64,000 bases of DNA from an uncultured Pseudomonadales bacterium. GTDB taxonomy: Bacteria; Pseudomonadota; Gammaproteobacteria; Pseudomonadales; JBECKS01. Position numbers and translations under genes: made by a program. Shown here piece by piece: positions 43,143-46,438 of the stretch. The stretch spans positions 129,526-193,525 of the forward strand of contig CAZKYI010000002.1 of NCBI GenBank assembly GCA_964557005.1. The letters are read 5' to 3'. The stretch's first letter is position 1. Every line of letters begins with the position of its first letter. The notes beneath the pieces are model-generated. The model did no database searches and was not told the DNA's origin. It saw only the letters and a list, made by a program, of their open reading frames with translations.

Positions 43143-43376
43143 AATTATCCTCATGTTGCGCACTTTAGGGCGCGTTTGTTAAGAAAAGATAAATATTTAC
43201 CGAAGAAAAGGTTAAGACCTTATTTTTCCGATAAATAAGTGTGTTTTTAAAATAACGTGAGGAGAGTAATGAGAGAATGTTAATTGCAGGTAAAGAACGC
43301 TTTAAACCTGAATTAATTTGGTGTGCATGAATTAAACTGAGCTGTAGAAATGAGTCAGATTGAATATATTGTTATT

Positions 43377-43691
43377 CTATGGTTTTTCAGTATTGCTTGT
43401 GAGTGCTGCATGTTCAGCAAGCTCTGCATTTATAAAAGCAGAAATCATTGAGCGATAGACGGCCTCGACTACATCGGGATTTGCACCGCAGTCGTGAGCA
43501 AGCGTGCGAACTTTTGAAATGACCTGCTCGACCCTTTGTGGCGCTTTAACGTCATCGGTGGATTTCTTAAAGCGCGCTGCCTGCATGACGAAGCCACCGC
43601 GCTCAGCGAGTAAGGCTACGATTTTTCGATCAATTGTGTCGATGTTGGAACGAACTTCTTCAAGGGAATTGCAAGTGATTGTCTTGTTCAA
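43377..43691 (-). CDS. monofunctional AroQ-class chorismate mutase (PchB-like)
   Basis: LEEVRSNIDTIDRKIVALLAERGGFVMQAARFK is the AroQ helix-1 signature. The protein is 104 aa. Confidence 0.8.
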   Translation of the reverse strand: MNKTITCNSLEEVRSNIDTIDRKIVALLAERGGFVMQAARFKKSTDDVKAPQRVEQVISKVRTLAHDCGANPDVVEAVYRSMISAFINAELAEHAALTSNTEKP

Positions 43692-43703
43692 TGTTTACTC
43701 CTG

Positions 43704-43982
43704 TCAGGCGCTTTTCGCACCGAGTATTTGCAAAATGGCACTGCTACTTTTTCCTCTTATTTCAATGACTTTATGTTGAGACGTACTACCTGAAATGACT
43801 GAAAGTGCGCTTTCGTTTAATTGTAGTTCTTTTGCCAGCAGTTTGATGACAGCCTCATTCGCTTTTCCTTTTTCGGGTGGGGCAGATACACGTACCTTGA
43901 GAGAATCGCCAAGCCAACCACAAACAGAAGAGCGTGATGCCCCTGGCACAACTTTTATTTTCAGCTTTGTTAATTCTTCCAT
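43704..43982 (-). CDS. DUF167 (YggU) family protein
   Basis: LKIKVVPGASRSSV...LKVRVSAPPEKGKANEAVIKLLAKEL. I prefer the M14 start. Confidence 0.8.
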   Translation of the reverse strand: MEELTKLKIKVVPGASRSSVCGWLGDSLKVRVSAPPEKGKANEAVIKLLAKELQLNESALSVISGSTSQHKVIEIRGKSSSAILQILGAKSA

Positions 43983-44061
43983 TGGTTTGTGTGTTCTACT
44001 AACGCCTGAATTAAGCCGCATCGAGAAGCGACATCGAATTGAATGAATTATTATTTTTTGT

Positions 44062-44095
44062 TTCTAACGTTGTCCGCAACATGGACTAGTTATAA
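44062..44095 (-). other. short attC-like imperfect hairpin closing the parDE unit
   Basis: On the minus strand: TTATAAC-TAGTCC-ATGTTGC-GGACAAC-GTTAGAA. The outer boxes pair 6/7, the inner stem is 5 bp, and one base is bulged. The parE TAA stop lies inside the TTATAAC box. Confidence 0.35.
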
Positions 44096-44377
44096 GTCTC
44101 TTTCAATTTCTTTGCCATGCCATAGCCGCAAAATGATTATTTCCTCTCTGGCAATAAAATAACGAATGGTGTAACTGCCAATAAATAAATCCCGAATGAG
44201 TTCCGGTTGTGGTGCCTTTAAAACTTGCAAACCCATTTTGGGAAATACTTTGAGTTTATCTATGCCAAGGAGCAGCTCTCTCGACACTCTTTGTGCTGCA
44301 ACTGGATTTTTGACTTCTATAAATTCACGAAGCCGATTCAAATCATCAATGGCTTCTGGCGTATACCTTATTTTCAT
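44090..44377 (-). CDS. parE: type II toxin, RelE/ParE superfamily (ParE-like)
   Basis: MKIRYTPEAIDDLNRLREFI...GSYTIRYFIAREEIIILRLWHGKE. A 4-nt overlap with the upstream antitoxin gene. Confidence 0.85.
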   Translation of the reverse strand: MKIRYTPEAIDDLNRLREFIEVKNPVAAQRVSRELLLGIDKLKVFPKMGLQVLKAPQPELIRDLFIGSYTIRYFIAREEIIILRLWHGKEIERDL

Positions 44378-44640
44378 ACTGAAGGGGGAGGCAACTCCTT
44401 GTCAGTGCCCCAACTTTGAAGCCATTCCGTAACTTTGGACTCGTTGACCAATTTGCCTGATTTGGCAGATTCCAGCGCAGCCAGAGTATCGTTCCAACGG
44501 CTATCTTCCATCAGTTGCCTGGCAATAAACTCTTTAACTGCTTGATTTATAAGATAGTTTTTACTTCTATCGAGTCGTTGAGCAAGACTTTCGAGAGGAG
44601 CTTCAATATCTTTAGAAATTCTGAGGCTGGTAATGCTCAT
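44374..44640 (-). CDS. parD: ribbon-helix-helix (CopG/ParD-type) antitoxin
   Basis: MSITSLRISKDIEAPLESLAQRLDRSKNYLINQAVKEFI is an RHH fold. It is coupled to the toxin gene. Confidence 0.8.
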   Translation of the reverse strand: MSITSLRISKDIEAPLESLAQRLDRSKNYLINQAVKEFIARQLMEDSRWNDTLAALESAKSGKLVNESKVTEWLQSWGTDKELPPPSV

Positions 44641-44706
44641 AACATATCTCCTGTGTATTATGTTGTAACACAGCGTAATACATGAGGAGAAGGCAAGTCA
44701 AAAGAC

Positions 44707-44775
44707 TTATAACGCCCACAACACCGGCAAACCGGAGCGAAGCGGAGGTTTGTCCGGTGCTTGTGATTGTTACGT
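44707..44775 (-). other. attC-like 69-nt imperfect palindrome closing the GIY-YIG unit
   Basis: On the minus strand: ACGTAAC...GTTATAA. The arms at 44714-44733 and 44747-44768 pair extensively, with two single-base bulges (44753 and 44760) and a 13-nt loop. The ORF's TAA stop lies inside ACGTAAC. Confidence 0.45.
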
Positions 44776-45510
44776 GTTGACTGGTACAAATTCACGCTCT
44801 ATTAGGTCGATAATAGAAGCTACCGTTTCGGTGCTAATGCTCATTACCTTTGCGCCGCCCTTCTTTCCCTGCTCTACGTCGAAGCCGTGCCCCTCAAGGA
44901 ATTCTTTGATGTCTTCATAGACATCTCTACTCCTTCCGATAGACAGATGATGCCTGCCGGACTTCCTCGCATTTACATAATATGTAAGTTGCTTGTCATC
45001 ACTAAAAAATGTGGGTCCGGCAATGCGTGAGCTTGATCTCAGAGGCTTTGTTAGCAAATCGGAAATTTCACCAAGTAGTATATGGTCAGATTTCTGCTTA
45101 TTTTCAACTTCTTTTTGAAGGACGCTCTGGGTGTAGGGATCGTTGCTTTGCTCGATTGGTAATTCTCTAGCGCCGATAAGCCCCATAATGGGTTGCATGC
45201 GCTCCACGAGCGTATCGTCCTTATCTAAGAACCACTCTCCCTCAATGCGACTATCATCTAGCAGCATATGCAGCGCGTTTTCGACGGCTCTGGCATCGCT
45301 ATGTTCCCAAGCGGCAATGCACTGGGCTTTTATGGGTGATTTTGTATTGCTTATCTGTTGTAGCCGAGAACTGAGGGTTGCATTGCCCGCGCCCGTTACA
45401 CCCACCTTTTTGTATGGGATATCAACATTCCCACCAATGTCTATGTGACGCATTACGTAGATCATATTCTGCATTAGCTAAATTAACTCCAAATTCTCCG
45501 AGACACGTAA
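44713..45510 (-). mobile_element. candidate integron-type gene cassette carrying the GIY-YIG gene
   Basis: On the minus strand G|TTACGT (45511-45505) lies 36 nt before the ATG. The same 7-mer is complemented by ACGTAAC (44775-44769) at the ORF end. The unit is 798 bp. Confidence 0.4.
44770..45474 (-). CDS. GIY-YIG superfamily (T5orf172/MUG113-like) domain protein with an uncharacterised C-terminal half
   Basis: The N-terminal IYVMRH..YKKVGVTG..LSSRLQQI..ENALHMLLDDSRIEGEWF fits the T5orf172 pattern. The C-terminal ~120 aa are unrecognised. Confidence 0.65.
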   Translation of the reverse strand: MQNMIYVMRHIDIGGNVDIPYKKVGVTGAGNATLSSRLQQISNTKSPIKAQCIAAWEHSDARAVENALHMLLDDSRIEGEWFLDKDDTLVERMQPIMGLIGARELPIEQSNDPYTQSVLQKEVENKQKSDHILLGEISDLLTKPLRSSSRIAGPTFFSDDKQLTYYVNARKSGRHHLSIGRSRDVYEDIKEFLEGHGFDVEQGKKGGAKVMSISTETVASIIDLIEREFVPVNT

Positions 45511-45519
45511 CAGTTTATT

Positions 45520-45548
45520 AAGCGGCCATGGCCGCTTTATTTTTTTTC
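45520..45548 (+). terminator. orphan plus-strand rho-independent terminator with no plus-strand gene upstream
   Basis: Perfect 18-nt palindrome AAGCGGCCATGGCCGCTT followed by TATTTTTTTT. It sits 8 nt from the cassette boundary. Confidence 0.55.
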
Positions 45549-45728
45549 ATTACCTTTCTGAAGCTGCCAGATTTTTATCTGCTTTTCAATGAGTTAGTAA
45601 GGGGCGCTTGCTCGTATGTCGATGCTGAGGGATTTACTGGCCGCATAACTTATGCTTACCAAACCGAAAAGCATTACATCATGGACTAAAAATCAGCCAC
45701 CCCCCTTGCACCCTTGTTCAAAATGGAT

Positions 45729-45748
45729 ATGATAACGGTAATTATCAT
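45729..45748. promoter_or_regulatory. candidate TetR operator
   Basis: Perfect inverted repeat ATGATAA-N6-TTATCAT, 16-35 nt upstream of the tetR-family start codon. Confidence 0.45.
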
Positions 45749-45763
45749 TATCGTTTTATAGCC

Positions 45764-46438
45764 ATGAATGCCCAATTAGACAAAGTGATCAATCTCGACT
45801 ATCGCCGCTGGACAAAAAACCCCAAGCAAAGCCGTAGTGAGGAATCGTTGGAGCGCATTCTCGATGCGGCGTTGGATCAGTTGCTGGAATACGGGGCAGA
45901 AAGCCTGAGTGTGGCCAGTGTGGCTGATCGCGCAGGTTATACGGTGGGTGCGCTGTACAGGCGCTTTGCTGATAAACAGTCGCTGTTGCATGCGCTGCAT
46001 GAGCGCTTTGCTGAAAACCTGCTCATGTTGATGAAAAACATTGCCGATCAGGTGGAAGCACAAAAACTCAGCATTGCCGATCTGGTTGAAATGCTCTCTG
46101 AACAAGCCTGGGCTTTTGCAGCACAGCAACAGGCCTTCTTGCAGTTGGCCAATATTTTTGCGCAAAACGATGAAGATTTTCTCAAACGTCGCGAGCTGGT
46201 GAGCAAGGCATCGGAAGATATTTTGAGACCCTTGTTTTTGAATCGCAGCAATGAAATCTCGCACCCTGATCCTGAACGCGCGGTGCGTTTTGTATTTGAA
46301 CAATCAATGGCGGCTTTTAACTACCGCATTGAAAGTGTGCAATCGAACAAGATTTTTCCAGTCATGGACGACAAGGAGTTCATCAATGAACTCAAACACT
46401 GTTTTTATTTATACCTTGGCCTTAAGTCAGCCAATTAA
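45764..46438 (+). CDS. TetR/AcrR-family transcriptional regulator
   Basis: HTH region ILDAALDQLLEYGAESLSVASVADRAGYTVGALYRRFADKQSLL. Confidence 0.9.
   Translation: MNAQLDKVINLDYRRWTKNPKQSRSEESLERILDAALDQLLEYGAESLSVASVADRAGYTVGALYRRFADKQSLLHALHERFAENLLMLMKNIADQVEAQKLSIADLVEMLSEQAWAFAAQQQAFLQLANIFAQNDEDFLKRRELVSKASEDILRPLFLNRSNEISHPDPERAVRFVFEQSMAAFNYRIESVQSNKIFPVMDDKEFINELKHCFYLYLGLKSAN

Follow-up and report, generated by a model that had tools for sequence, protein, structure and literature searches.

The 64,000-nucleotide (nt) stretch analyzed here, which we call the window, comes from an uncultured Pseudomonadales-like gammaproteobacterium, and at 43.3-45.5 kb on its minus strand it most probably holds an integrase-less integron cassette array, that is, a group of clustered attC sites without an integron integrase (CALIN), caught at several stages of decay. 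The array is bordered by a tetR-Rieske operon on one side and by the pst operon on the other. An earlier note, made from the letters alone, had proposed two tandem integron cassettes at this place, a GIY-YIG gene and a parDE pair, and all the motifs that it listed were recovered from the minus strand at the positions it gave. Both units are genuine integron cassettes, and they head a longer, decaying four-gene array without an integrase. All array genes lie on the minus strand, along which junctions and gene order are read throughout. L-numbers (L001-L028) designate the other loci or contigs compared; L001-L005 are metagenomic contigs carrying the first cassette. The features discussed below are as follows.

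45511-45548, plus strand: left flank, with a terminator-like palindrome and a T-run; the 11 nt beside the junction read TTAATAAACTG|TT
45511-45505, minus strand: left junction G|TTACGT; the resemblance to all other cassette 1 copies sets in at T45510
45510-44713, minus strand: cassette 1, 798 nt, composed of TTACGT, a 36-nt leader, the GIY-YIG/T5orf172 open reading frame (ORF) and the attC, ending ...GGGCG
45474-44770, minus strand: ORF of cassette 1, 234 amino acids; TAA stop within ACGTAAC (44775-44769)
44775-44707, minus strand: attC1, intact, 69 nt; R'' ACGTAAC, bulged G44760 and A44753, R' G|TTATAA (44713-44707)
44712-44068, minus strand: cassette 2, parDE, 645 nt, composed of the TTATAAGTCTTTTGAC leader with its own putative promoter and operator, parD, parE and a crippled attC
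44640-44374, minus strand: parD; weak RHH match, 0.0027 (below cut-off), and RelB-like match, 3.6e-6
44377-44090, minus strand: parE; Pfam ParE_toxin, 2.8e-14; TAA stop within TTATAAC (44095-44089)
44095-44062, minus strand: deleted parDE attC, 34 nt; R'' TTATAAC, 5' arm TAG-TCCAT-G-TTGCGG-A-CAAC, R' GTTAGAA (44068-44062)
44056-43997, minus strand: decayed attC, full-length, 60 nt; R'' AAATAAT, R' GTTAGTA
43982-43704, minus strand: DUF167 gene, starting 20 nt after G|TTAGTA; its own attC is gone
43691-43377, minus strand: chorismate-mutase-like (isochorismate-lyase-like) gene, cassette-derived, 12 nt from DUF167
43377-43292, minus strand: possible last, fully decayed attC; GAATAAC AAT ... TTAATTCAGGTTTAAAGC GTTCTTT

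Boundaries, attC site and cargo of the first cassette

Cassette 1 was found in six contexts. Its DNA shows 2-3 mismatches over the 798 nt when aligned with the copies in five other metagenomic contigs (L001-L005), each of which has unrelated flanks. Identity across copies starts exactly at G|TTACGT (T45510) and stops exactly at GGGCG|TT (44713); the base preceding TT at the left junction is G in four of the five other copies. These limits, together with the unrelated flanks, define the cassette as 45510-44713 and place the crossovers at the very G|TT positions named in the earlier note. In the other contigs, its neighbors are small genes, each followed by an attC-like palindrome. Cassette 1 is thus a mobile integron cassette, and the proposal that the two units are bounded at G|TT is borne out by boundaries shared with other contigs as well as by the covariance model described below.

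In both cassettes, the first 6 nt are complementary to the unit's own R'' box: ACGTAAC and G|TTACGT in cassette 1, TTATAAC and G|TTATAA in cassette 2. This relation, already pointed out in the note, is found as well in the homologous cassettes of L014, L002, L001, L028 and L022-24. The R boxes of the two cassettes agree with the consensus RYYYAAC/GTTRRRY at 5-6 of 7 positions.

The site that closes cassette 1 had been described as a 69-nt imperfect palindrome with two attC-like bulges, and this description stands. Folded as single-stranded DNA, its top strand reaches -16.2 kcal/mol (z -3.2) and its bottom strand -17.5 (z -3.6), and two single bases bulge from the coding strand's 5' arm, 8 and 15 nt past AAC. 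The aadA1 attC has bulges at both of these positions, and the attCs of other loci occupy one or both of them, the second bulge being elsewhere in some. We scanned the whole 64 kb for structures in which AAC...GTT is forced to pair and a single base bulges out 7-9 nt further in. With strict criteria, attC1 is the only clean match, and four random 64-kb sequences of the same dinucleotide content gave 0, 0, 2 and 0 matches, the best at -10.6 kcal/mol. One other scan match, at 3576-3493 (TTATAACAAG...), lies inside an ORF, is without a covariance-model match and was taken as chance. The covariance model, built from 12 attCs all taken from other loci (89% of the training alignment paired, 9 of 15 pairs compensatory, covariation score reached by 0 of 500 shuffles), aligns with attC1 over its full length at 48.5 bits (E 1.9e-10). 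On geometry, structural scan and covariance model, the 69-nt site is classed as an attC. The note had also asked whether such palindromes might form a repetitive extragenic palindrome (REP) family. No second copy of attC1, of the parDE site or of the 44056-43997 site is present in the 64-kb window, and attC1 is therefore not a member of such a family.

The 234-amino-acid protein of cassette 1 is encoded, in identical form, by six other contigs from different sequencing runs. Its N-terminal domain is of the T5orf172/MUG113 (GIY-YIG-like) type (Pfam MUG113 9.4e-9, T5orf172 1.6e-6) and its C-terminal half is uncharacterized. No sequence match was obtained among solved structures, a PHROGs search returned families of unknown function only, a single-sequence AlphaFold model was unusable (pLDDT 44), and no strong promoter was predicted upstream of the cassette. 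The protein belongs to a very small family, with 117 cluster representatives among 1.84 billion, about 10 of them full-length, and has a weak match (1.8e-8) to the PADLOC candidate PDC-S57. In L001, cassette 1 lies two cassettes upstream of a 6.8-kb cassette with type I restriction-modification and KwaAB genes. A role of the protein in defense is possible. Considering the near-identical copies in six arrays, the defense neighbor in L001, the PDC-S57 match and the family size, we may even speculate, as a rather doubtful proposition, that it is a new single-gene anti-phage nuclease spreading as a cassette among environmental gammaproteobacteria, of which the window copy would be a recent capture.

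The large unit of L001 (2527-9330) deserves a description of its own. It is a single cassette that starts at G|TTATAT and ends in an exactly complementary ATATAAC box and attC, with no internal intergenic gap big enough for a second attC. Unusually large for a cassette, it combines two defense systems in one unit, hsdR-hsdM-hsdS (type I restriction-modification) and kwaA-kwaB (Kiwa).

Decay of the distal units

Cassette 2 is assigned to the type II toxin-antitoxin pairs: the predicted antitoxin gene, parD, precedes the toxin gene, parE, and the two overlap by 4 nt. Homologues of ParE with 82-89% identity occur in four other contexts (L009, L010, L014 and L027). In the two contigs that include the upstream junction (L010 and L014), the parDE unit starts with G|TT(A/G)TAAGT and has a conserved TTGAC(T/G) and an inverted repeat, which resemble a promoter and operator carried by the cassette itself. 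The ParE stop lies in TTATAAC in all four contexts and is followed by an intact attC of 57-72 nt. The intact 57-nt site of L027 reads TTATAAC CAG GACAT G TTGCGG A CAAC TTTCA GTTG CCGCAA ATGGC GGC GTTGGTG, and that of the window TTATAAC TAG TCCAT G TTGCGG A CAAC GTTAGAA. Compared with L027, the window site retains both R boxes, the whole 5' arm and both bulge positions, and has lost 23 nt comprising the loop, the 3' arm and the spacer.

This comparison justifies a caveat of the earlier note, that 34 nt is too short for an attC: the site is a 57-nt attC minus 23 nt. The 34-nt imperfect hairpin reported there is present where it was placed, but it does not amount to a significant structure (z -0.8 and -1.3; covariance model 11 bits, E 2.7), the deletion having left a site too short to fold. 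Read against its intact homologues, G|TTAGAA (44068-44062) is regarded as a true cassette boundary. A parDE cassette that can no longer present a folded attC would not be excisable and would stabilize the segment that carries it.

Two of the parDE relatives lie in settings of their own. In L014 (6500-7687), a parDE cassette whose ParE is 82% identical to the window's abuts the rnfABCDGE operon at the junction CAGCTG|TTATAAG, with no intI; one more cassette and an IS3-family transposase follow, making this a second integrase-less array head beside housekeeping genes. In L010, an uncalled DUF167 ORF (1352-1576), 31% identical to that of the window, begins 5 nt beyond the G|TT that ends the attC of parDE, and its stop overlaps the stop of an acyl-CoA dehydrogenase gene running convergently. 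A parDE cassette is thus followed by DUF167 in both the window and L010, whose genomes are unrelated.

The earlier note took the two cassettes to be inserted between core genes, a view that our results do not sustain. A further decayed attC (44056-43997) lies between parDE and DUF167; with 44067-44057 it makes up a 65-nt unit without an ORF. It does not fold, and it gives the second-best match of the covariance model in the window (12.9 bits, E 0.82). When we compared 43290-45560 by BLAST with a database of 72,556 plasmids, the sole matching stretch was this decayed attC, which over 55-62 nt shares 82-85% identity with the attC located after qacF in the class 1 integrons of 66 plasmids (for example, intI1-aac(3)-Ib-qacF-qacEdelta1-sul1 in CP027606.1). 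About 11 substitutions separate the two, R'' having changed from TCTAAC to AATAAT and the pairing of the arms being destroyed.

The DUF167 flank and the gene behind it are likewise cassette-derived rather than core, to judge from their homologues. The closest DUF167 homologues (78-80% identity) stand within long same-strand arrays of small unrelated genes (L015, L017-21), and the covariance model detects an attC directly upstream of the L015 copy. A homologue of the chorismate-mutase-like gene, 90% identical, forms one cassette found in three contexts (L022-24), with a start at G|TTATGGCTCAAAAGCAAGGAGTAAAAATTGAAC and an end in CCATAAC and an attC. In the window, the DUF167 stop (GCCTGAC) runs straight into AGGAGTAAACATTGAAC: between the two genes, neither the DUF167 attC nor the opening ~17 nt of the following cassette is left, and the two cassettes are thereby fused. 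An R''-like box sits at the stop codon of the chorismate-mutase-like gene, as in the homologous cassettes. The stretch that follows (43377-43292) neither folds nor matches the covariance model; it may be a decayed attC and is kept as such, and the right-hand end of the array is uncertain. We also note that the 10-mer TTAATTCAGG occurs at 43311-43302 and at 44013-44004 (minus strand), that is, after the chorismate-mutase-like gene and within the decayed qacF-type attC, ~10-17 nt before GTT. The shared 10-mer suggests, if weakly, that what follows the chorismate-mutase-like gene could be a decayed qacF-type attC.

We may thus hypothesize the following history. Each unit would have arrived as a circle whose folded bottom-strand attC the integron integrase IntI then recombined, at G|TT, with a double-stranded site at the array head. 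This course of events would explain why the first 6 nt of each cassette are complementary to its own AAC box, why each stop codon lies inside that box and why the newest cassette stands next to the left junction. Starting from the tetR side, unit 1, the GIY-YIG/T5orf172 cassette, would be a recent capture, with an intact attC and still mobilizable. Unit 2 would be the parDE toxin-antitoxin cassette with its own promoter, fixed by the 23-nt attC deletion that took the loop and 3' arm; unit 3 an ORF-less remnant, its qacF/aadA-type attC spoiled by point substitutions; and unit 4 the DUF167 and chorismate-mutase-like cassettes, fused through loss of the attC between them. The order of units agrees with insertion at the array head: circulating copies match the tetR-proximal cassette at 99.6-99.7% identity, and the distal units have nearest relatives with only 80-90% protein identity and ruined attCs. 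GC and GC3 contents do not distinguish the cassettes from their flanks.

Origin of the array

No integron integrase was found in the 64-kb window by tblastn, using either IntI1 or the IntI of L007, in agreement with the earlier note; the span free of intI extends 45 kb on one side of the array and 18 kb on the other. In a complete integron, intI would be found where tetR sits here. The sole related genome recovered is L007, a Pseudomonadales metagenome-assembled genome (MAG) with TetR and Rieske proteins 83-87% identical to those of the window. At 4.6 kb from the orthologous tetR it encodes an integron integrase (TIGR02249, 412 bits for a cut-off of 265), and its cassettes point away from tetR, with the same polarity as in the window. 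Since chance is unlikely to have put an integron-derived array next to the same tetR in two genomes, we favor a shared chromosomal integron locus whose intI was lost in the window lineage. On balance, the array would be the remnant of a chromosomal integron deprived of its intI and attI platform. The earlier note had offered two origins; the L007 integrase lends better support to a CALIN derived from a chromosomal integron, and less to a fresh insertion of two cassettes at a secondary site.

The L007 locus (381-2075) comprises intI (1083-2075) and, as first unit, a divergent higB-higA toxin-antitoxin pair (974-381); an attI-like TTTGATACTG|TTAT is present ~35 nt from the intI start. Upstream of tetR, the window has a 25-nt palindromic stretch at 45728-45752, GATAACGGTAATTATCATTATCG, which is 96% conserved in L007 and is probably a TetR operator. 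Homology between the window and L007 ends just past GATAACGGTAATTATCATTATCG, ~190 nt before the array.

The left junction bears on the origin as well. The 11 nt to its left (TTAATAAACTG|TT) agree at 9 of 11 positions with TGAATCAGCTG|TT of L007 and L014 and with TGAATTCACTG|TT at the attI position of L028, a score equaled by 11 of the 2378 GTT sites of the window (0.46%). The resemblance points to an attI-type core, and is suggestive rather than proof. We recognized no direct repeats at this junction. The cassette junctions of L007 and L014 themselves share 15 identical nt, TGAATCAGCTGTTAT: at L007:89-103 and L014:6656-6670, the same 15 bases (TGAATCAGCTG|TTAT) occur at a junction in unrelated contigs, following an A-rich run and a GC-rich hairpin, and may represent either a core of the attI type or an unusual class of attC. 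This layout recurs at the left junction of the array.

In the left flank, 45520-45537 is an 18-nt perfect palindrome, AAGCGGCCATGGCCGCTT, followed by TATTTTTTTT (to 45547, plus strand), and together they look like an intrinsic terminator of the plus strand. This terminator-like site stands directly at the left junction, with no plus-strand gene upstream, and would stop antisense transcripts running from the array towards tetR. We considered the palindrome as an attC remnant and rejected it, as it has no bulges and no covariance-model match; a 13-nt match between the T-run of the flank and the sequence after the L007 intI was set aside as low-complexity (E 0.9).

Several points weigh against the reading of the locus as a decaying CALIN derived from a chromosomal integron. 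A single attC of the window reaches statistical significance, and IntegronFinder at its default (at least two attC) might report a single attC or nothing. The window and L006, which is identical to it, could both have been assembled from one set of reads, in which case the arrangement would have been observed only once; exact look-ups of the TetR and ParD proteins returned solely the contig of the window. The 250 nt between the junction and tetR contain no intI pseudogene or recognizable attI. L007 is distant, with 74% DNA identity in tetR, and four genes between its intI and tetR are absent from the window, so that a shared ancestral locus is deduced from co-location. Finally, a clean G|TT at the left junction is also what insertion at a secondary (attG) site predicts.

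Such an insertion is the next explanation in line, though a distinctly less probable one. By attC x attG recombination, an integrase encoded elsewhere or on a transient element would have inserted cassettes serially at a non-integron G|TT upstream of tetR, the left half-site continuing to act as a pseudo-attI after the first insertion. The clean CTG|TT of the left junction, free of an attC arm and with no intI, intI remnant or recognizable attI adjoining it, is what one would see in this case, and the parDE cassette of L014 abuts the rnf operon likewise, without intI. Insertion at GWT sites, and the small CALINs and SALINs so formed, are documented (10.1101/2022.09.11.507474). However, the units of the array number four or more instead of two, and their ages differ widely; in the one relative recovered, a complete integron adjoins the orthologous tetR, in matching orientation; and the 11 nt left of the junction resemble first-cassette junctions, including the attI position of L028 (P ~0.005). 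No empty site was found either: the sequence ...CTG|TTAGAA... predicted by the earlier note did not turn up, a scan of genomes for Rieske yielding a single MAG (L007), which is distant and lacks collinearity at the junction, and a scan of metagenomes yielding nothing. With cassette-derived neighbors on the right, this particular empty site is not to be expected.

It is more improbable still that the integron is split, with an active intI elsewhere in the genome and part of the array brought beside tetR by a rearrangement, its cassettes being linked to the integrase in trans. The 99.6-99.7% identity of cassette 1 to circulating copies argues for recent integrase activity, and about half of CALINs are in genomes or replicons encoding IntI (PMC4889954), but neither end of the array carries an insertion sequence (IS) or other scar of rearrangement, and the left boundary is exactly the G|TT recombination point rather than an arbitrary breakpoint. 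That there is no integron here at all, the palindromes being ordinary terminators or REP-like repeats and the GTT/AAC matches chance, could appeal to boxes that deviate from consensus, to the unfolded 34-nt site and to an Rfam search of 43600-45900 that gave no relevant family and none matching the attC-like sites, yet it is refuted by the G|TT boundaries of cassette 1 in six contexts, the compensatory changes in the attC family and the covariance-model score of attC1, besides the lack of a repeat copy in the window. We thus retain the loss of intI and attI from a chromosomal integron as the preferred origin.

Comparison with known integron arrays

The window array is a well-known kind of element and adds no new mechanism. 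CALINs, as described by Cury et al. (2016, PMC4889954), who also treat their origins, have two or more attC sites on the same strand and no integron integrase nearby. The window shares with them tandem same-strand cassettes, the absence of intI within 4 kb, a small size, and environmental cassettes without resistance genes; it differs in having one intact attC, the others being deleted, point-mutated or gone. One significant attC and two recognizable sub-threshold attCs, all on the same strand within 780 nt and with no intI, place the array, formally, on the border between CALINs and single-attC SALINs.

Sedentary chromosomal integron arrays of the Vibrio type (PMC13108822, PMC11023631) are similar in their same-strand, small, unrelated genes and in having the newest cassette at the head. 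A toxin-antitoxin cassette with its own promoter, here parDE, is usual in chromosomal arrays. In contrast to these arrays, the window has no intI/attI platform, four units instead of tens or hundreds, and heterogeneous attCs that are mostly inactivated. The ORF-less third unit resembles the attC of qacF/qacL (aadA-type) in class 1 integrons (CP027606.1): window 44053-43992 has the layout AATTC ATT C AA..CG A ... CGGCTTAATTCAGGC GTTAG. Unlike that attC, it has R'' AATAAT instead of TCTAAC, both of its arms are substituted and unpaired, and no gene is attached.

The history of the distal units has a wider bearing. Short genes that look like core genes, such as DUF167 and chorismate mutase, can be cassette cargo, which matters when insertions are called by their flanks. 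Four states stand side by side in this array: an intact attC, an internally deleted attC, a point-eroded attC, and two cassettes fused after attC loss.

SALINs formed by attC x attG recombination (10.1101/2022.09.11.507474) have a G|TT junction, as does the array, and the DNA to the left of the array's junction is non-integron. The window departs from them in its several units of different ages and in the integron that its relative L007 has at the same locus. Insertions of this type have non-integron genome on both sides and an empty G|WT site in relatives, and the right-hand neighbors are here cassette-derived units; the attG hotspot motif of IntI1 (CRGM at +6 to +9) was looked for by eye and is not evident at any candidate right half-site. 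Loot et al. (10.1101/2022.09.11.507474) proposed the loss of attC sites by slippage as a route of cassette domestication. The predicted deletion of folded attCs is seen in the window in the parDE site and in the fusion of DUF167 with the chorismate-mutase-like cassette, so that the proposed route can be read here in sequence, in a clear natural example of cassettes becoming fixed in a chromosome.

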